DNA of 53,755 bases from the NCBI GenBank assembly GCA_021810375.1, contig JAJZJB010000001.1, positions 1 to 53,755 of the forward strand, given 5' to 3'. The DNA is from Candidatus Micrarchaeota archaeon. Lineage in GTDB: Archaea > Micrarchaeota > Micrarchaeia > Micrarchaeales > CABMGC01. Position 1 is the stretch's first letter. Every line of letters starts with the position of its first letter. Shown here in pieces: positions 40,509-48,481 of the stretch. The position numbers were made by a program, and so were the translations under genes. The notes beneath the pieces are model-generated. The model saw only the letters and a program-made list of their open reading frames with translations, did no database searches and was not told the DNA's origin.

Positions 40509-41051
40509 ATGAAGGCAAGATCAGGAATCAGGGCGAGGTCTGCGCTTAGCGGGCAGGAGATTGCAGAGCTTGCCGCACTGCAACGTCAGCTCAGGCGCAG
40601 CGACGTATTTGGCAAGAACAGGATCGCTATCATAAAGCGATGCGAAGAGATACGAGGACAGGGGCAGGGCTTAGCGTCACGTAAGGCCGCGCCGATCGCC
40701 AGCGCGGACCAGAACCAGGCAAGACAGATAGTTTCCTCGGCGGAGAGGCTTTTCAGGAACTATATGGCGCAAGGAGCACCACATAGGCAATTCGACGAAC
40801 TGGTGATCGCAGCATTCGGACTTGCAATGAGACCGCCAACAGAATGGAGATGGAACAGCAACGCTGGCATAAAGGAAGCCAAGAGGAGGGTAGCAGCGTT
40901 TGCGGAGAGAGAGGGACGACGCCCGGGCGAAGGCGAATTCGGGGGATTGCTCGGCCTGGGCGGCTTCATGGACATTTACAAGAAGGCCTTGGGCAGTGCT
41001 TATTCGTACGAGTCTATGATGATGGTGCTTTCGCGCATGAGTGTGGAATGA
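40509..41051 (+). CDS. Hypothetical Arg-rich protein
   Basis: 180-aa ORF with a TATA-like TTTATAT about 35 nt upstream. I recognise no family. Confidence 0.4.
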   Translation: MKARSGIRARSALSGQEIAELAALQRQLRRSDVFGKNRIAIIKRCEEIRGQGQGLASRKAAPIASADQNQARQIVSSAERLFRNYMAQGAPHRQFDELVIAAFGLAMRPPTEWRWNSNAGIKEAKRRVAAFAEREGRRPGEGEFGGLLGLGGFMDIYKKALGSAYSYESMMMVLSRMSVE

Positions 41052-41821: not shown

Positions 41822-43612
41822 TCACTTGTCCTCTACCTTTACCCTTTTCTGCATGCCATACATTTCTATTATCTCTTTTGTTGATGTAGCATCTTCGGGG
41901 CCCTTGTCCTCTCTTACGCCATCGCTAACTATCCTTGGGAACCTCAGCGCATATCCAGTCTCTCCCTCTTTTCCGCAGGTATGCATAGGCGACTTTGTAA
42001 TCTCGTCTGCCCTGACAGTAACCACGTAAGTGGGTTCGACCCAGAAGTCCGGGACAACAACCGCGTCGACGCGCGCGGGCTTGCCTGGCCTCTTTATCTT
42101 GTCAAGCATCCTCTTGAAGGACTTCATCTGCTCCTCGGAGAACCCGGTGCCAATCCTGGTTATAGTCTCGAACATGTCCCTCTTCTCGTTATATACTGCG
42201 GCCAGCAGTCCGCCGAATTGGAACTCGGCGCGGGAGCCTCTGCCCAGGTAGTATCCAACTATAACTAAATCAACGGTATCGGATAGTTCGCCCTTGTAGC
42301 TCCTTTTCAGCTTTATCCAGCCGAACTTCCTTGCTCCGGCAACATACGGCGCGTTGAGATCCTTGGCCACTATCCCTTCCAATCCTTCGGATATCTGCTC
42401 CTCGAAGTATTTCTCGAGCTCTTTCGGATTCTCCGCTATTATCCTTCCGGAAGGGATGATTGTCTTGCTTCCCTTTATAACATATTCGAGCTTCGCTCTT
42501 CTCTCGTGGTAGGGTTTCTCAAGGTAGTCTTCTCCGTCTAGATACATCAGGTCGAAGGCGAATAGGTGAAGGGGCATGGTCTCGCTGAACTCCTCTATCC
42601 CATGCTTCCTTTTCCTCTGTATGGTCTCCTGGAATGGCCTGAACTCTCCAGTCTCTTCGTTGTATGCTATAGCCTCGCCCTCTATTATCGCCCGCTCTGC
42701 CTTGACTTCGGACAGGGCTGCTTCGGCTATTTCAGGAAGCATGGGCGTGAGCTTCTCAAGGTTCCGTGAGAATATCTCGACTCTCTTCTTGCCCTTGTCC
42801 AGGTGCACCTGCGCCCTCAGTCCGTCGTATTTTGATTCGACGGCGCACTTGCCGTGCATCTTTTCGAGTATCTCCTCGGATGTTGGGAGTCGCTCGGCCA
42901 GCGCGGGCCGGATGGGATTGAAGACTGAGACCTTGACTTTCTCTATGCCCTTCATTCCCGACTCAGCAAGCACTTCGCCGACCTTCCCAAGATCGCCGCA
43001 TATGTTGTATGCGTTCTCGAGCAGTGCCTTGGATCTCCTTTCTCCTGTTGCCATTTTTGAGAGAGCCTCGAGTATCGTGGCGTCTCCGGCGCCCAGGCGC
43101 ACCTTCCCGAGCGCAAGCCTGATTATGTATCTGGCTTCCAAGGGGCTGGCAGATGCAAGGAGCGCGGCAATATTGCGGATCTTGGCCTCCTGGCTTCCTG
43201 AACCCGATGTTGAGGCTGTCTTCAACATCATCGCGAATACGTCGCGCACGCTCTGCTTCCTTGAACTCATTCTCTTGAGCTTCGTCTTCCTGGCAAGGCC
43301 CTCTGCAGTATTCCCGAGGTCTCCCGTCCTCTTCGCATCCGCCACTACTTCTTCCTTGGTGAACCCTGTTGCTGATGCTATTGCCTGTTGTGCGAACTTC
43401 TCTGCTATTCCGATCTGTATGCCCTCGAACGGAGGGCCGAGCAATCCCTGCGTCATGTAGATGAGCGGTCTCATCTCCTCCTTCTCTGCCTTGCCGAACA
43501 TTTCAGCAAGTATGTCTATCATTGATATCCTGGAAGTAACGGATTCTAGTTTCTCATAATACGATGCCGCATCCTCGAAGAGCATCAGACCACCATTACC
43601 TATTGCATGCAA
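41822..43612 (-). CDS. lig: ATP-dependent DNA ligase
   Basis: Adenylation motif AVESKYDGLRAQVH, then EGEAIAY, EGIVAK and the OB-fold C-terminus. Confidence 0.95.
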   Translation of the reverse strand: MHAIGNGGLMLFEDAASYYEKLESVTSRISMIDILAEMFGKAEKEEMRPLIYMTQGLLGPPFEGIQIGIAEKFAQQAIASATGFTKEEVVADAKRTGDLGNTAEGLARKTKLKRMSSRKQSVRDVFAMMLKTASTSGSGSQEAKIRNIAALLASASPLEARYIIRLALGKVRLGAGDATILEALSKMATGERRSKALLENAYNICGDLGKVGEVLAESGMKGIEKVKVSVFNPIRPALAERLPTSEEILEKMHGKCAVESKYDGLRAQVHLDKGKKRVEIFSRNLEKLTPMLPEIAEAALSEVKAERAIIEGEAIAYNEETGEFRPFQETIQRKRKHGIEEFSETMPLHLFAFDLMYLDGEDYLEKPYHERRAKLEYVIKGSKTIIPSGRIIAENPKELEKYFEEQISEGLEGIVAKDLNAPYVAGARKFGWIKLKRSYKGELSDTVDLVIVGYYLGRGSRAEFQFGGLLAAVYNEKRDMFETITRIGTGFSEEQMKSFKRMLDKIKRPGKPARVDAVVVPDFWVEPTYVVTVRADEITKSPMHTCGKEGETGYALRFPRIVSDGVREDKGPEDATSTKEIIEMYGMQKRVKVEDK

Positions 43613-43712
43613 ACATTATATTGGTTGCCTTGCCTTGGCTGTGACACGCTCTTGCAAGTGCCGGCTGCTGTTTCCCTTTTATACTTTGATTCTGCAATGC
43701 TATTGTGGTCCA

Positions 43713-44360
43713 TTGCTAGAGTACAATAGCTTAAGCATAGAGACTGGCAGCCGGGTCTACATGCCTGCAGAGGACTCCATGCTGGCAGCAAGGCTGGTCA
43801 GCGGGTACCTCGCAAGCGAGAAAAGGCGCGGCCTTGAAGCTATCGACATGGGCACAGGAACGGGAATACTTGGGCTGGCAATGGCAATGGACAAGCACGT
43901 CAGGCGTGTGAGACTTTCCGATATAAATCCAGATGCAGTTGACCTGGCTAGGCGGAATTACGAAAGGAACAAGGATAAGCTTCATGCATCATGCTTATTC
44001 TCTGTTGCTGACATGTTCCCGAGGGCAAATGAAAAGTATGATGTTATAACGTTCAACGCGCCGTACCTGAATAAAGAGGAGGGCGAGAAAGGAGAACTTT
44101 GGTGGGACGGAGGGAAGGAAGGCATTGAGGTATCGCTGCGCTTCCTGGAAGGCGCAAAGACGCACATCAAATCCGGCGGATCCGTATTCCTCGTTTACAG
44201 TTCCCTAGGGAATGAAGGGCAACTCCTCGAGGAGATAAATAAGCTTGGTTTCGTTATCTTGGAAACAAGGAGCGAGCACTATTTCTTTGAGGATATAAGA
44301 GTCTCAAGGATGGTTAGGGAGCCGATATCCCGCCGTGCCCTTTCCGAGGAAAGCGTATGA
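43713..44360 (+). CDS. HemK/Mtq2-like N5-glutamine (release factor) methyltransferase; start uncertain (TTG 43713 or ATG 43761)
   Basis: VYMPAEDSMLAA, DMGTGTGILGL and FNAPY (an NPPY-type motif). The conserved VY.PAEDS block spans the ATG, which favours an upstream start. Confidence 0.7.
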   Translation: MLEYNSLSIETGSRVYMPAEDSMLAARLVSGYLASEKRRGLEAIDMGTGTGILGLAMAMDKHVRRVRLSDINPDAVDLARRNYERNKDKLHASCLFSVADMFPRANEKYDVITFNAPYLNKEEGEKGELWWDGGKEGIEVSLRFLEGAKTHIKSGGSVFLVYSSLGNEGQLLEEINKLGFVILETRSEHYFFEDIRVSRMVREPISRRALSEESV

Positions 44361-44784
44361 CATTGGCTCGGGACAGCGATTCGTCGAGTTTATGTATCTC
44401 CCTTGCAAGGCCCTGCACTATGTCATGCCATGATACCTGCGCTTCGGGACGGAGCGGGGAGAATTTCGAGTGGAGCGAGAATATTTCCACTGCTGCACCC
44501 AAGGCGTCGGTCAGGGCGATCTTCTTTTCCCCCAAGTCGCTGGTCTCGTTTGCTATCTTAACAAACTCTGTGTACTCGGCGCGCTTCTTTTCTATTTTCA
44601 TATTGACTTCGCCGTTGCACTCGCCCAGCCATGCACTGCGCGTATCTGGCCTTTTCAATATAATGACCTTCGCAAGAGGAGCATCAGGTAAATCGGCTTT
44701 GTTGCCAGTTGAAGACTGCGCTGGTGCACGTGACCGGAATGGGAGTATCTCGGCCATCTGGGGGTTCTTGCGCAATAGTCCCAT
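44314..44784 (-). CDS. Hypothetical protein (cassette gene 5)
   Basis: 156-aa ORF. Its ATG overlaps the stop of the upstream ORF (TAATG). Its 3' end overlaps the convergent methyltransferase gene by 47 nt. Confidence 0.45.
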   Translation of the reverse strand: MGLLRKNPQMAEILPFRSRAPAQSSTGNKADLPDAPLAKVIILKRPDTRSAWLGECNGEVNMKIEKKRAEYTEFVKIANETSDLGEKKIALTDALGAAVEIFSLHSKFSPLRPEAQVSWHDIVQGLAREIHKLDESLSRANVIRFPRKGHGGISAP

Positions 44785-45152
44785 TATACACGCCTCATAG
44801 CGGCGAAGTCCATTTGCCCGCTCCTGTATGCCGCTTCTATGGCCTTGCCTGGATCCCCGCTGTAATAATCGTTAAGCATCTTCGAGAGCCCGTGCCGCCT
44901 GAATGCGGCCCTGCCGGGGGTCTTGCCTCTTGATGCAGATTCAACAATGACATTGCCGATAAGGCCTATACGCACACAGCTGTCCTTAAGATCCTCCTTG
45001 CTCGGCTTGCTGCCGTGGACTTTCTGCGAGAATCTTTTCTGGCGAACAACCATGAGGCATGCTTTTCTGCAATCGAATTCCGGAGCAGCCTGCCTGCCTC
45101 CGCTGATCAGGATTAACCTGCCACTAGGCCTTCCACGCGCCTTACGCTCCAC
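44784..45152 (-). CDS. Hypothetical basic protein (cassette gene 4), GTG start
   Basis: The GTG is preceded by GGAGGTG at a spacing of 6 nt. 122 aa, starting MERKARGRPSGR... Confidence 0.5.
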   Translation of the reverse strand: MERKARGRPSGRLILISGGRQAAPEFDCRKACLMVVRQKRFSQKVHGSKPSKEDLKDSCVRIGLIGNVIVESASRGKTPGRAAFRRHGLSKMLNDYYSGDPGKAIEAAYRSGQMDFAAMRRV

Positions 45153-45218
45153 TGTGACACCTCCATTTACGCTACTACTCCGTGTCTTTTAAGACTTTTG
45201 TACAAAAATCAGCGCGGA

Positions 45219-45347
45219 TCACTCGTCCTTGAACTTAACATTATCAGGAGCAGGCTTCCCGCATGCCTTGCAGTAGATGGTCTTGTCGCCTATGTACCTG
45301 CGGAACTCCTTGCTTCCGCACTCGCACACGTATGGTTCAGCCTTCAC
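45219..45347 (-). CDS. Small zinc-ribbon protein, 42 aa (cassette gene 3), below the ORF-track cutoff
   Basis: My translation is (V/M)KAEPYVCECGSKEFRRYIGDKTIYCKACGKPAPDNVKFKDE, with CxC..CxxC. The GTG overlaps the stop of the upstream ORF. Confidence 0.4.
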   Translation of the reverse strand: MKAEPYVCECGSKEFRRYIGDKTIYCKACGKPAPDNVKFKDE

Positions 45348-46440
45348 TCATCTCCCTCTCGATTGAATCAATTCTGGCAAAGTACCCGCCCCTTGCAAGA
45401 TAAGTGCCAAGCTCGAGGTTTATGCCAATGCTGCTCGGGTCAATGCCGTTCTTCTTTGCTGAATTCATGCTCGCTATCATAGGCCTGAGCATGTTCATCA
45501 ATTCACTGGCATCCTCCCTGTACCTTTCCATAGAGCCCAGTTGGAGTTTCCTCCTATATAATTCTGCAAGTTCCATTTGGGTCTTGTATACTGAAAGAAG
45601 CGCTCCTGCCACCCTCATTGTGCCATCAGGTTCTTCGTAAGCCTTGCGTGCTGCCAATATCTGTTTTCTCATAAATCCGAGGAGCATAATTTCCTGTTCT
45701 GACAAGGCAGGAGGAGCGCGGGGCTTCTGGCTAGTAATAATATCCTTTCTCAGGAGCCGCAGCGGCTCGGTTGGATAGGGTTGCTCCCTTGCGTTTCGCG
45801 TATTAGTAGCGAAAGAACTATCCTGCGCTGAATCAGGCATCCGGATTCCTGGATTCTTGTACGGTGTGGATGTAGCACGGAGGGTGCTTTGTATCTCCTT
45901 ACCCTGCCTTTCCCTTTGCCAGGCAAGTTCCTGCCTGGGAAGACCGTTTGCCTTTATCGCAGCGTATATTGCGCTTTTGCCATTTCCAAGCTCCCTGGCT
46001 ATCTGCGAGACAGGCATGCCCATGCCGCGGAGTGCAGCAAGCCTTGAAGCATCTACCCTCGACGGGACCCCAGAATGTGCCTTGTTCGGATCGATGCCAT
46101 ATCGCTTGTAAGCGCTGCGCACCGATGATCTTGATACGTTATATAAGCTGGCTATCTCTGGCACGGTGAGTCCATCCTCTGTAACTGACTCAAGCTGCTC
46201 CTTGGTTATTTTGGGTACTGGGCCTTTCCTCCGCATGCCCGGAAGCCTGGATCCGGATCCTTCAGTTATCACATTGCGCATTGTGCACGAAGAAGCAGCA
46301 TACAGATTCTTGGCCCGGATAATAGATAAACTTGACAGTGAATCACCAAACGATCTCTCAAGACCAGATTCTCTTCTACTATTTATATTGCTTTTCTTCG
46401 AAAGCAGCAGGATATCAGAAGCTGCCCATCTCGTCTTCAA
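45337..46440 (-). CDS. Hypothetical protein with two HTH motifs and a helical C-terminal domain (cassette gene 2); paralog of 46415..47074; the true start may be internal
   Basis: LTVPEIASLYNVSRSSVRSAYKRYGI and MPVSQIARELGNGKSAIYAAIKANGL. The C-terminal region aligns with the neighbouring ORF (..LAGA.LS....Q.EL...Y...). Confidence 0.55.
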   Translation of the reverse strand: MKTRWAASDILLLSKKSNINSRRESGLERSFGDSLSSLSIIRAKNLYAASSCTMRNVITEGSGSRLPGMRRKGPVPKITKEQLESVTEDGLTVPEIASLYNVSRSSVRSAYKRYGIDPNKAHSGVPSRVDASRLAALRGMGMPVSQIARELGNGKSAIYAAIKANGLPRQELAWQRERQGKEIQSTLRATSTPYKNPGIRMPDSAQDSSFATNTRNAREQPYPTEPLRLLRKDIITSQKPRAPPALSEQEIMLLGFMRKQILAARKAYEEPDGTMRVAGALLSVYKTQMELAELYRRKLQLGSMERYREDASELMNMLRPMIASMNSAKKNGIDPSSIGINLELGTYLARGGYFARIDSIEREMSEG

Positions 46441-47074
46441 GATCCTGAACTTCCTCGGCCCTCCTCTGCACGTAAGTCGTCCTATGCAGCAGGTAATCGG
46501 TTATCTCACGGGAAGGTCTGACTGCAGCAGGATCCCTTCCGAGCATCTTCGAGAGCCGCATCTCTTCAAGCATGGGATTAACAAGCATGAGCACGTTCTT
46601 CCTGAGTTCCTGAACCTCTGCTGCCCTGGAATATTCATGTATCTTGAAGTATATGTTCCCAAGTTCCTTCTGGTCCTCTGCAATTGAGAGCATGGCACCG
46701 GCAAGTTTTATGGCGTTCTTGGCCTCGAGCGCATTTGTCGCTTCCTCAAATTGCCTTGAAACATGACCTAGCAGGGACCTCTTCCTCGACTCTGCCGATA
46801 TTCCAGGATCTTCTTCGCGCTTGAGGAGCTTCCAGCTTTGAGGAAGATCAATTGTCTGTCGGGTTGGGCGACGCGTCAGTGACCCTGTGCCATTGTTGTC
46901 TGGCGCCTTTGATAGCCTCTCTTTCGTATGGGTTGATTGTGCTGTTTCTGTGGCGTGGGTCTTCCGTTCGGATTCTTGCCTTTTTATGCCATATCTCTTG
47001 CATGCACCGTATACGCTTGACTTGGCAACGCCGAGGGTTTCCGCAATCTCGCGCACAGATATTCCAGTATCCAA
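46415..47074 (-). CDS. Hypothetical HTH protein (cassette gene 1). The coding signal extends upstream to 47233 without a canonical start
   Basis: ISVREIAETLGVAKSSVYGACKRYGI. The 53 codons upstream are open and align with the paralog (RPRGSTRRKIDPQSLQELL versus RRKGPVPKITKEQLESV). Confidence 0.5.
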   Translation of the reverse strand: MDTGISVREIAETLGVAKSSVYGACKRYGIKRQESERKTHATETAQSTHTKERLSKAPDNNGTGSLTRRPTRQTIDLPQSWKLLKREEDPGISAESRKRSLLGHVSRQFEEATNALEAKNAIKLAGAMLSIAEDQKELGNIYFKIHEYSRAAEVQELRKNVLMLVNPMLEEMRLSKMLGRDPAAVRPSREITDYLLHRTTYVQRRAEEVQDLEDEMGSF

Positions 47075-47233
47075 GAGTTCCTGAAGCGACTGCGGGTCTA
47101 TCTTCCTGCGTGTGGATCCGCGTGGACGAGTCTCAGCAACAGTGACCGCCTTGCCAACAAATGCAATAGTACCTCCCAGAGTATCACCGAATGCGTGTTT
47201 AGAGTATAATAGCCATATTGCTTCCGTGGAGAC

Positions 47234-48481
47234 TCATTCTTTGATCCTGAGGACTTTCCTTACCTTTGATATGGCATCTACGGCCCTGTCTACTTCCTCT
47301 TCCATGTTATATAGGTAGAAACTCATCCGCGCAACAGAGGTCTCGTCAAGGACCTGATTGACAAGAGGCATTGCGCAATGATGGCCTGCCCTTATTGCTA
47401 TGCCCTCGCTGTCGAATATTGTTGCCACGTCATGTGGGTGCGCTCCGGCTATATTGAATGAGACTACCCCTCCGCGCTTATCTGCATCCCTGACTCCCGG
47501 GCCGTATACCTTGACCCCTTTGACCTCCTCCAGGCGCTTCAGGGCATATCTTGCAATTTTCATCTCATGCTCGCGGATCCTCCGCATGCCTATCCTTTCA
47601 AGATACTCTATTGCCGCAGCGAGTCCCACTCCGCCTTCCATGTTTGGGGTGCCGGATTCAAATTTCCATGGGAGCTCGTTCCAGTCAGCAGAATCAAATG
47701 TAACGCTCCGTATCATGTCGCTGCCGACTATTGCAGGGGTGATTGACTCAAGGAGCTGGTCCTTTCCGTAGAGCACCCCGACCCCGGCAGGGCCCAGCAT
47801 CTTATGGCTCGAGAATGCAAGGAAATCGCAGTCTATGTCCTTTACATCGACGGGCATGTGAGGCACTGACTGCGCTGCGTCTATCAAAACCAGTGCGCCA
47901 GCCTTGTGCGCAAGCCTTGCCATCTCCTTGGCATTGTTTATGGTGCCGAGCACATTCGATGCGTGCGTTATCGCAACCATCTTTGGCCCGTGCTCCAGCT
48001 TCTCCTTGAAGTCGTCCATGTCGACGAATGACTTGTCCTTGAGCCTCGCATGCTCCAATATTGCCTTCTTCCTCTTTGCAAGCATGAGCCACGGAACTAT
48101 GTTGCTGTGGTGCTCCATGTCAGTTATCAGTATGCGGTCCCCCTTTCCAATGTTAGGCTCGCCCCATGACAGCGCAACTATGTTTATCGCGTCGGTAGTA
48201 TTCCTGCAATAGATTATGTCGCGGTATGATTCCGCGTTTATCAGTTTTGCAGAGAGCTCCTTGGAGCGCTGGTACTCTTCGGTAGATTTCATTGACAATT
48301 CGTAAAGGCCGCGATGTATGTTGGCATTGAACGTCTTGTAGTATTCGCTTACCCTGTTTATCACATAGAGGGGCTTCTGCGACGTGGCAGCGCTGTCCAG
48401 GTATACCAGTGGCTTTCCATGGTTTGTGGTGGAAAGTATGGGAAAGTCCTTCCTTATATCGGTTACATCAAGGTCAGCCAA
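47234..48481 (-). CDS. sufS: Cysteine desulfurase SufS (class V aminotransferase)
   Basis: YLDSAATSQKP, SSHKMLGPAGVGVLYG (PLP Lys) and RAGHHCA (active-site Cys loop). Confidence 0.95.
   Translation of the reverse strand: MADLDVTDIRKDFPILSTTNHGKPLVYLDSAATSQKPLYVINRVSEYYKTFNANIHRGLYELSMKSTEEYQRSKELSAKLINAESYRDIIYCRNTTDAINIVALSWGEPNIGKGDRILITDMEHHSNIVPWLMLAKRKKAILEHARLKDKSFVDMDDFKEKLEHGPKMVAITHASNVLGTINNAKEMARLAHKAGALVLIDAAQSVPHMPVDVKDIDCDFLAFSSHKMLGPAGVGVLYGKDQLLESITPAIVGSDMIRSVTFDSADWNELPWKFESGTPNMEGGVGLAAAIEYLERIGMRRIREHEMKIARYALKRLEEVKGVKVYGPGVRDADKRGGVVSFNIAGAHPHDVATIFDSEGIAIRAGHHCAMPLVNQVLDETSVARMSFYLYNMEEEVDRAVDAISKVRKVLRIKE

Follow-up and report, generated by a model that had tools for sequence, protein, structure and literature searches.

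The window analysed here is a 53,755-nt stretch of DNA from a Candidatus Micrarchaeota archaeon (contig JAJZJB010000001.1, assembly GCA_021810375.1), which forms contig 27 of a 601-kb metagenome-assembled genome (MAG) that is 64% complete (G000). Between the cysteine desulfurase gene sufS and a convergent Mtq2/HemK2-type methyltransferase gene, it carries an island of five open reading frames (ORFs). All five are real genes under purifying selection, and every family in the island is restricted to one Micrarchaeota genus, where it always lies between sufS and Mtq2. Taken together, sequence comparison and structure models portray the island as a genus-specific chromosomal set of orphan genes. 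The likeliest role for its products would be that of a lineage-specific DNA-binding or regulatory complex, a reading for which our confidence is evenly balanced. An earlier note on this DNA had proposed such a complex, and this remains the best reading of the locus.

Selection and conservation of the five genes

The five ORFs were found on the minus strand where the earlier note had placed them. In order from sufS, they comprise two genes encoding helix-turn-helix (HTH) proteins with a shared C-terminal domain (CTD) (genes 1 and 2), a short CxC...CxxC zinc-ribbon gene, and two small genes (genes 4 and 5). The main comparator was G004, a genome of the same genus whose sufS is 96% identical to that of the window. 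Between the two, the ratio of nonsynonymous to synonymous substitution rates (dN/dS) rises from 0.09 in gene 5 through 0.11 in the ribbon gene, 0.13 in gene 4 and 0.18 in gene 2 to 0.26 in gene 1, compared with 0.04 in sufS, and no stop codon lies within any of the five genes in either genome. None of the five proteins contains a membrane-like segment (maximum KD19 <1.0).

The families are orphans, and gene 1 of the window has lost its start and part of a promoter-like element, which might suggest that the ORFs are spurious or decaying pseudogenes. Such an explanation is hardly credible in view of dN/dS values of 0.09-0.26, the lack of stops in both species and the confident AlphaFold2 (AF2) domain models. 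The start/stop overlaps, a Shine-Dalgarno (SD) site and the promoter-like motifs are likewise conserved, and the ribbon retains 62-95% identity across the genus. The explanation is thus disfavoured for genes 2 to 5, with gene 1 in the window lineage as a possible exception.

Distribution and evolution of the island

To follow the island through the genus, the sufS-Mtq2 interval was compared in G000-G006, G009, G010, L028 and L052, of which L028 is an independent NCBI assembly nearly identical to the window. A gene is called abutting here if its start adjoins or overlaps the preceding stop. In G000 and G004, gene 1 is followed by gene 2 with an abutting ribbon gene, and then by gene 4 with an abutting gene 5. 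L028 carries a gene 1/gene 2 chimera, consisting of the gene 1 HTH and linker and the gene 2 linker and CTD, together with an abutting ribbon gene and genes 4 and 5. The G002 island encodes an HTH-CTD protein, an abutting ribbon and an abutting fusion of genes 4 and 5. G005 has a possible CTD protein with an abutting ribbon, a 355-aa repeat protein and gene 4-like and gene 5-like genes, while G006 has a CTD protein without any HTH, an abutting ribbon and a gene 5-like gene. In G001 and L052, a helical protein of 333-344 aa abuts the ribbon; the protein of the deep-branching L052 scores 25.2 bits against the CTD profile, compared with a maximum of 13.9 among 2,000 shuffles. The ribbon starts 4 nt after sufS in G003, where an unrelated 113-aa helical ORF follows, and it is the only island gene in G009. 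Finally, the site is empty in G010, with sufS and Mtq2 about 10 nt apart. In G007 and G008, the searches detected neither the ribbon nor sufS.

The ribbon is thus present in eight genomes of the genus plus L028 and L052. All ribbon-bearing loci are Micrarchaeota MAGs or contigs, and all are ordered sufS, island, convergent Mtq2. The earlier note had asked whether the five genes travel together and with suf. The sufS/Mtq2 site is indeed constant; however, the five genes do not travel together, and only the helical bundle and the ribbon are widely kept. The sufS tree places the empty-site genome G010 within a clade that carries the ribbon, with the ribbon-bearing G003 as its sister (98% SH-aLRT); the empty site is therefore a secondary loss.

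Searches beyond the genus returned little. In a word-index search of 5.8 billion clusters, gene 2 matched three clusters, gene 5 two and the ribbon seven. An exhaustive HMMER search of 1.84 billion representatives with the ribbon profile yielded only seven stand-alone proteins of 48-57 aa, the rest being multi-zinc-finger noise, and the same profile found nothing convincing in about 145 other Micrarchaeales genomes. Order-wide searches with the CTD and gene 5 profiles (about 150 genomes) produced only marginal coiled-coil-like matches near chance level.

HTH and zinc-ribbon genes are typical of small integrated archaeal viruses and plasmids, and the earlier note had considered that the island might be the remnant of an integrated element. 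In its full form, this explanation holds that a small archaeal virus or plasmid entered the sufS-Mtq2 interval in the ancestor of the genus, was domesticated long ago, and has been decaying or reshuffling since. The gene content is patchy and differs between species, one species has an empty site, and the island lies at a convergent gene junction. Furthermore, the HTHs weakly match families common to resolvases, transposases and terminases, and the codon adaptation index (CAI) of genes 1, 2, 4 and 5 (0.64-0.70) is somewhat lower than the reference (0.735 +/- 0.04). Against these points, the island occupies the same site in every genome, and its presence and absence are congruent with the sufS tree, the empty site being a loss. 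The GC content of 0.51-0.55 is native (neighbours, 0.49-0.53), all genes are under purifying selection, and the ribbon has a CAI of 0.83, as high as that of the suf genes. The comparison of composition with the flanks that the earlier note had called for hence gives matching GC, mildly lower codon adaptation for four genes and a high value for the ribbon. As that note had observed, there is no integrase, replication or capsid gene, and the locus is no obvious provirus or plasmid; it also lacks tRNAs and att-like direct repeats. The ribbon and HTH-CTD profiles found no relatives in IMG/VR, a JGI metagenome scan found none, BFVD gave no fold match, and PHROG matches are confined to the HTH. We therefore consider a mobile-element remnant unlikely. 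The fixed site, the sufS tree, the native GC and the lack of flanking repeats or tRNAs indicate instead that the island, at its place between the 3' ends of sufS and Mtq2, was inherited vertically from the genus ancestor, with fast modular change.

The zinc ribbon and its helical partner

The ribbon gene (45219-45347, minus strand) encodes 42 aa, and its products range from 42 to 64 aa within the genus. Ten residues are invariant, namely Y6, C8, C10, G11, C26, C29, P34, N36, V37 and F39. The GTG start (45347) overlaps the stop of gene 2 by 11 nt, as the earlier note had described, and the close linkage is kept across relatives: the overlap between the ribbon gene and the gene upstream of it measures 4-11 nt in G000, G004, L028, G001, G002, G005 and G006, and in L052 the two are 3 nt apart. 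Since the ribbon starts at or over the stop of the helical gene, the two proteins are probably made together and probably form a hetero-complex.

The helical partner in the window is gene 2 (45337-46281, minus strand), which encodes 314 aa from ATG 46281 and comprises tandem HTHs of the HTH_23/HTH_7 type (about 46093-46179 and 45964-46047), a linker and the CTD (45340-45714). Its two HTH stretches exceed the Pfam cut-offs for HTH_23 (PF13384; 35.3 bits against 24.6), HTH_28 (28.4 against 25) and HTH_7 (26.6 against 23.8). The single HTH of gene 1 remains below the Pfam cut-off on its own (18-22 bits), yet gene 1 is homologous to gene 2. This agrees with the two HTHs that the earlier note had assigned to gene 2 and the one to gene 1, and its proposal that the two genes are paralogs is supported by BLASTP (E = 4e-17, 27% identity over 245 aa). 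It had also described a shared helical C-terminal domain of about 110 aa. The AF2 model of this domain (about 110-125 aa) is helical, with a predicted local distance difference test (pLDDT) score of 86.5 and a predicted template modelling (pTM) score of 0.77. It contains three long antiparallel helices, and a fourth helix is weakly predicted.

The start of gene 2 requires revision. It had been called at TTG 46440, which is not conserved, and the stretch between TTG 46440 and ATG 46281 has a dN/dS of 1.0 and two in-frame stops in G004. Because this region behaves as non-coding DNA, gene 2 starts at the conserved ATG 46281. The overlap of genes 1 and 2 claimed previously is consequently an ORF-calling artefact, and the two genes are separated by a 133-nt spacer (46282-46414). 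This spacer contains an archaeal B recognition element (BRE)/TATA-like element, AAGCAATATAAAT (46381-46393, minus strand), whose sequence does not differ between G000 and G004. The motif recurs upstream of the CTD gene of G006 and upstream of gene 1 of G004, and G005 has AAGGAATATAAAT. We regard AAGCAATATAAAT as the putative promoter of a unit formed by gene 2 and the ribbon gene.

About 35 nt downstream of this element lies GTGATTCAC on the minus strand, an inverted repeat of 4 bp with 1 nt between its arms. Its position (about 46340-46348) was estimated from an alignment, and it is conserved in G004 within TTTGGTGATTCACTG. The three spacer regions of the island include GTGATTCAC and GTCTTAAAAGAC.

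The gene 4-gene 5 pair

Gene 4 (44784-45152, minus strand) encodes a protein of 122 aa with an isoelectric point (pI) of 10.6, in which an N-terminal RGRPSGRL motif precedes a small helical domain. The ribosome-binding site noted earlier, an SD-like GGAGGTG, is present at 45158-45164 on the minus strand, 5 nt before the GTG start, and is conserved in G004 and L028. Further upstream, a TATA-like element, AAAAGTCTTAAAAGAC (45184-45199, minus strand), contains the palindrome GTCTT-AA-AAGAC and may serve as promoter or operator of a gene 4-gene 5 unit. A related sequence, AAAAGCTTAAAAGA, precedes gene 4 in the distant G005. The 66-nt spacer between the ribbon gene and gene 4 (45153-45218) is almost invariant among G000, G004 and L028, and its conservation exceeds that of the flanking coding sequence.

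Gene 5 (44314-44784, minus strand) encodes a 156-aa protein with an antiparallel three-helix bundle, flanked on both sides by short I-[IL]-P-[FL]-x-R-like motifs. Its ATG overlaps the stop of gene 4 (TAATG), in line with the earlier description. G004 retains the overlap in the form ATGA, and in G002 the pair is naturally fused into one gene. In the model of this fusion, the gene 4 part adopts a small helical domain (pLDDT 83-88) and the gene 5 part a three-helix bundle (pLDDT 91-98).

Considering the G002 fusion and the conserved coupling of the ribbon, the products of each coupled pair very probably act together. The earlier note had drawn the same conclusion from the tight linkage of all five genes; it holds for the two coupled pairs and not for the whole set. 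Similarly, the single translationally coupled five-gene cassette described before is not retained. Instead, the island comprises two coupled pairs plus gene 1 and appears to be divided into three units with a TATA-like element in front of each. One unit would be gene 1 by itself, the second gene 2 with the ribbon gene, and the third gene 4 with gene 5.

Two further relationships within the window were considered. A kinship of gene 4 with the ORF at 40509-41051, based on a motif recognised by eye ('...Y..G....A...AY'), was rejected (BLASTP E = 5.4). The CTD and gene 5 bundles were also rejected as distant paralogs (hhalign probability 0.05%).

Truncation of gene 1 in the window lineage

The product of gene 1 (46415-47143, minus strand) has a single HTH (about 46991-47068), which a polar linker joins to the three-helix bundle of the C-terminal CTD (46418-46792). 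The first canonical start of the gene, TTG 47074, cuts off the first helix of the HTH, while the homology to gene 2 and to gene 1 of G004 runs further upstream, to about 47143. Alignment of the G000 and G004 DNA reveals the cause: an in-frame deletion of 198 nt (66 codons), with its junction at 47136-47155 on the minus strand (near 47145), took the ancestral start codon and the N-terminal ~60 residues. The same short form is present in L028 and is therefore not an assembly error. The extension of gene 1 to 47233 proposed earlier reflects this deletion, and the homology stops at about 47143. Upstream of gene 1, at 47215-47223 on the minus strand, lies a degraded promoter-like copy of AAGCAATATAAAT, AAGCAATAT-GGCT, and G004 keeps the intact AAGCAATATAAAT at the equivalent place.

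The sufS TGA (47234-47236) is in frame with the open stretch 47075-47233 that leads into gene 1. This arrangement results from the 198-nt deletion plus small indels relative to G004, in which the frames differ, so recoding at the sufS TGA need not be invoked.

Comparison with known families and folds

The earlier note recognised no family beyond the HTH and the zinc ribbon, which is borne out by searches of Pfam, NCBIfam, PHROGs, PADLOC, PDB sequences and folds, and BFVD. For the five proteins and their diverged congeneric versions, Pfam, NCBIfam, PHROGs and PADLOC gave only generic HTH matches, and none for genes 4 and 5. A PDB sequence search with the ribbon profile returned zinc-knuckle noise, including a match to RanBP2-type repeats that is inflated by the repeats. 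Foldseek searches of the PDB (gene 4-gene 5 fusion and CTD) and of BFVD (CTD) found nothing with E <0.02; the best matches of the CTD, to sNASP, FliS and designed bundles, are non-significant (E >=0.027).

HTH_23, HTH_28 and HTH_7 occur in IS630/Tc1 transposases, in serine recombinases and in certain terminase small subunits, where they belong to the DNA-binding region at the N-terminus. Gene 2 carries the tri-helical signature of these homeodomain-like/resolvase HTH modules, and its tandem HTHs resemble bipartite transposase DNA-binding domains. In contrast to such proteins, genes 1 and 2 contain neither a recombinase nor a DDE catalytic domain, and their CTD has no detectable relative outside the genus. 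A serine recombinase or resolvase was rejected since only the HTH_7 part matches and no catalytic family appears in Pfam, NCBIfam and PHROG scans. An IS630/Tc1 transposase was rejected likewise (NF033545, 14 bits against a cut-off of 100; no DDE family match); the HTH_Tnp_IS630 domain passes its threshold in G004 gene 1 only (23 bits against 21.3). For a terminase small subunit, Terminase_5 reaches 16-17 bits against a cut-off of 20.3 and the PHROG TerS matches have E >=0.04. The CTD matches no TerS in the PDB or BFVD, and no packaging genes lie nearby. Hence, neither the terminase small subunits nor the transposase accessory proteins that the earlier note had named as families that would overturn its proposal were found. 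Anti-phage defence was also rejected, because the only PADLOC model matched is the 60-position HTH model mad1 (gene 2, E = 1e-7) and genes 4 and 5 match none.

The ribbon bears some likeness to the one-domain C(P)XCG zinc-finger micro-proteins of Haloferax and Halobacterium. It is a stand-alone protein of <70 aa with four cysteines in two knuckles and predicted zinc binding, and its second knuckle, CK[AKQ]CG (CKACG), fits the C(P)XCG pattern. Unlike these, its first knuckle reads C-x-C-G with one residue between the cysteines, its sequence shows no significant similarity to them (NCBIfam HVO_A0556 reaches 15 bits, the cut-off being 65), it is limited to one genus, and its gene is coupled to that of a helical partner. 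One small zinc-finger protein of Halobacterium, Brz, regulates bop transcription and so sets a precedent for such proteins in archaeal transcription control (PMC2253796; PMC6562870; PMC11241148).

The best fold matches of the gene 5-type bundle are MIT domains (2v6y and 2w2u; TM about 0.65), although these are non-significant (Foldseek E >=0.6). The MIT domain is the N-terminal three-helix bundle of Vps4 and binds short MIM peptides. Gene 5 proteins carry short Pro-containing hydrophobic motifs beside the bundle, which adds to the likeness. In contrast, they show no sequence similarity to MIT domains and no AAA ATPase or ESCRT context, and any antiparallel three-helix bundle would match in this way.

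Possible partnership of the ribbon with SufS or Mtq2

The position of the ribbon next to sufS raises the question of whether the ribbon core, with or without its helical partner, is a Suf accessory, i.e., a sulfur or metal acceptor, an electron donor to SufS or a suf regulator. The ribbon is always downstream of sufS on the same strand, and it is the next gene of the operon in G003 and G009, where only 4-10 nt separate its start from the stop of sufS. Its four cysteines are invariant, and its codon adaptation matches that of the suf genes. However, the sufS of G010 is intact although the ribbon is lost, and no ribbon was found in the other Micrarchaeales genomes searched. A conserved TATA-like element of their own precedes the CTD genes, and in the window clade the ribbon has HTH proteins as its coupled partners. 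Pfam/NCBIfam scans show no similarity to SufE, SufU or TusA. We consider a Suf accessory role distinctly improbable.

On the other side of the island, the ribbon always lies beside the convergent Mtq2 gene (7 nt apart in L052), and it could be a highly diverged Trm112-like activator of this methyltransferase. Trm112, a small protein that binds zinc in eukaryotes, acts as a partner of Mtq2 (PMC6144793). The likeness is one of small size and of a gene abutting Mtq2. Also in favour of this idea, PF03966 is unmatched in all 12 genomes of the genus searched. Yet most other Micrarchaeales likewise show no detectable stand-alone Trm112, so that its absence is not specific to the genus. At the sequence level, the ribbon was rejected as Trm112: it does not match PF03966, and hhalign against a genuine stand-alone Micrarchaeal Trm112 gives P = 0.12. 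The ribbon gene is neither co-oriented nor coupled with Mtq2, being coupled translationally to the CTD gene, and G010 keeps Mtq2 without the ribbon. Moreover, aRF1 methylation in Haloferax volcanii is independent of Trm112 in vivo (PMC6144793). A Trm112-like activator is thus very improbable.

In the order-wide search (e.g., L058-L064), stand-alone PF03966 was detectable in only a few Micrarchaeales genomes. Most PF03966 matches in the order are to a partial zinc-knuckle (profile positions 9-34) inside open frames of ~360-420 aa.

Proposed function of the island

The best reading therefore remains that of a DNA-binding or regulatory complex, for which we propose a stepwise origin. The ancestral core consists of an antiparallel three-helix-bundle (CTD) protein and a four-cysteine ribbon of 42-64 aa that is probably co-produced with it and would bind it. 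In the sub-clade of the window, the helical protein has gained one psq/resolvase-like, HTH_23-type HTH (gene 1) or two (gene 2) and been duplicated, and a second coupled pair, the basic gene 4 protein with its RGRP motif and the gene 5 three-helix bundle, has been added. The HTHs may tether the complex to DNA, while the bundles and the ribbon may provide oligomerisation and partner binding. Judged from their natural fusion, the gene 4 and gene 5 products could form a second hetero-complex. The spacer palindromes, GTGATTCAC and the GTCTT-AA-AAGAC of the gene 4 element, are candidate operators. The complex as a whole would be cytoplasmic and DNA-bound, with a regulatory or nucleoid-associated role. 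The comparisons and models given above directly show that the genes are real and under selection, and they establish the paralogy, the HTH membership, the folds, the distribution and synteny, and the fusion, chimera, deletion and loss events. That the products assemble into a complex, bind DNA and act in regulation, and that the TATA-like elements work as promoters, is inferred.

Several observations weigh against this reading. The ancestral core lacks any HTH (G006, G003 and G009), and DNA binding therefore cannot have been its original activity, unless the ribbon itself binds nucleic acid. The locus is also dispensable, as it is lost in G010 and as G007 and G008 have no detected ribbon or sufS. 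In the window, gene 1 has no start that covers the whole HTH and its TATA-like element is degraded, so this gene is possibly decaying in the window lineage. The folds themselves, three-helix bundle and zinc ribbon, are generic, and no match from the fold searches reached significance. Finally, a basic pI was dropped as evidence for nucleic-acid binding, since the median pI of the window proteins is already 8.4.

Taking the core by itself, the bundle and ribbon may constitute an undescribed two-subunit module that arose within one Micrarchaeota genus, acting as a new SufS or Mtq2 partner or as a new chromatin or regulatory complex. Its rapid shuffling through HTH gain, chimeras, fusion and loss would then reflect a continuing conflict or adaptation, for instance towards a Thermoplasmatales host or viruses. 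We regard this broader proposal as speculative and quite unlikely.

The genomes of DPANN archaea are tiny, and a considerable fraction of their genes lacks annotation. The island is a well-bounded case of lineage-specific genes that purifying selection marks as clearly functional. At this locus, a stepwise evolution from core pair through HTH accretion, duplication, chimera, fusion and loss can be read at one fixed site. Three new orphan families for which the fold models are confident also come from the island, namely the CxC...CxxC ribbon, the bundle of the CTD and the pair formed by genes 4 and 5. It further offers candidate motifs for archaeal promoters, as well as natural 'Rosetta-stone' evidence for two protein pairs. 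If a role in transcription regulation or a partnership with SufS or Mtq2 proves true, the island would show how genome-reduced symbionts innovate. On present evidence, it is a modest finding at the level of annotation and not a categorically new system.

Related modules and flanking genes

Tandem HTH_23 pairs with other C-terminal parts occur at L003:3-599 (contig 21 of G000) and at L007:1279-2331 (G038). The donation of the HTH modules by a transposase was rejected, because these HTH-only relatives are not transposases. The tandem pair appears to be a reusable Micrarchaeal DNA-binding module, which the CTD protein acquired in the sub-clade of the window.

The 355-aa protein of G005 (L036:1114-2178), encoded between the ribbon gene and the gene 4-like gene, contains at least seven tandem repeats of ~14 aa (HQDPEFARAxSERMRL/M-like) and matches no Pfam family. 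An Rfam scan of 43500-47600 gave no match; a bacterial promoter and terminator scan is uninformative for an archaeon.

Upstream, the island is anchored by sufS (47234-48481, minus strand), the last gene of the sufBDCS operon; Aminotran_5 is annotated at the orthologous sufS loci. The downstream anchor is the convergent Mtq2/HemK2-type gene (43635-44360, plus strand), which matches NCBIfam TIGR00537 with 107 bits against a cut-off of 87. Its C-terminal tail beyond the methyltransferase domain overlaps the 3' end of gene 5 on the opposite strand by 47 nt (44314-44360), the same extent as given in the earlier note, and this overlap is kept in G004 and L028.

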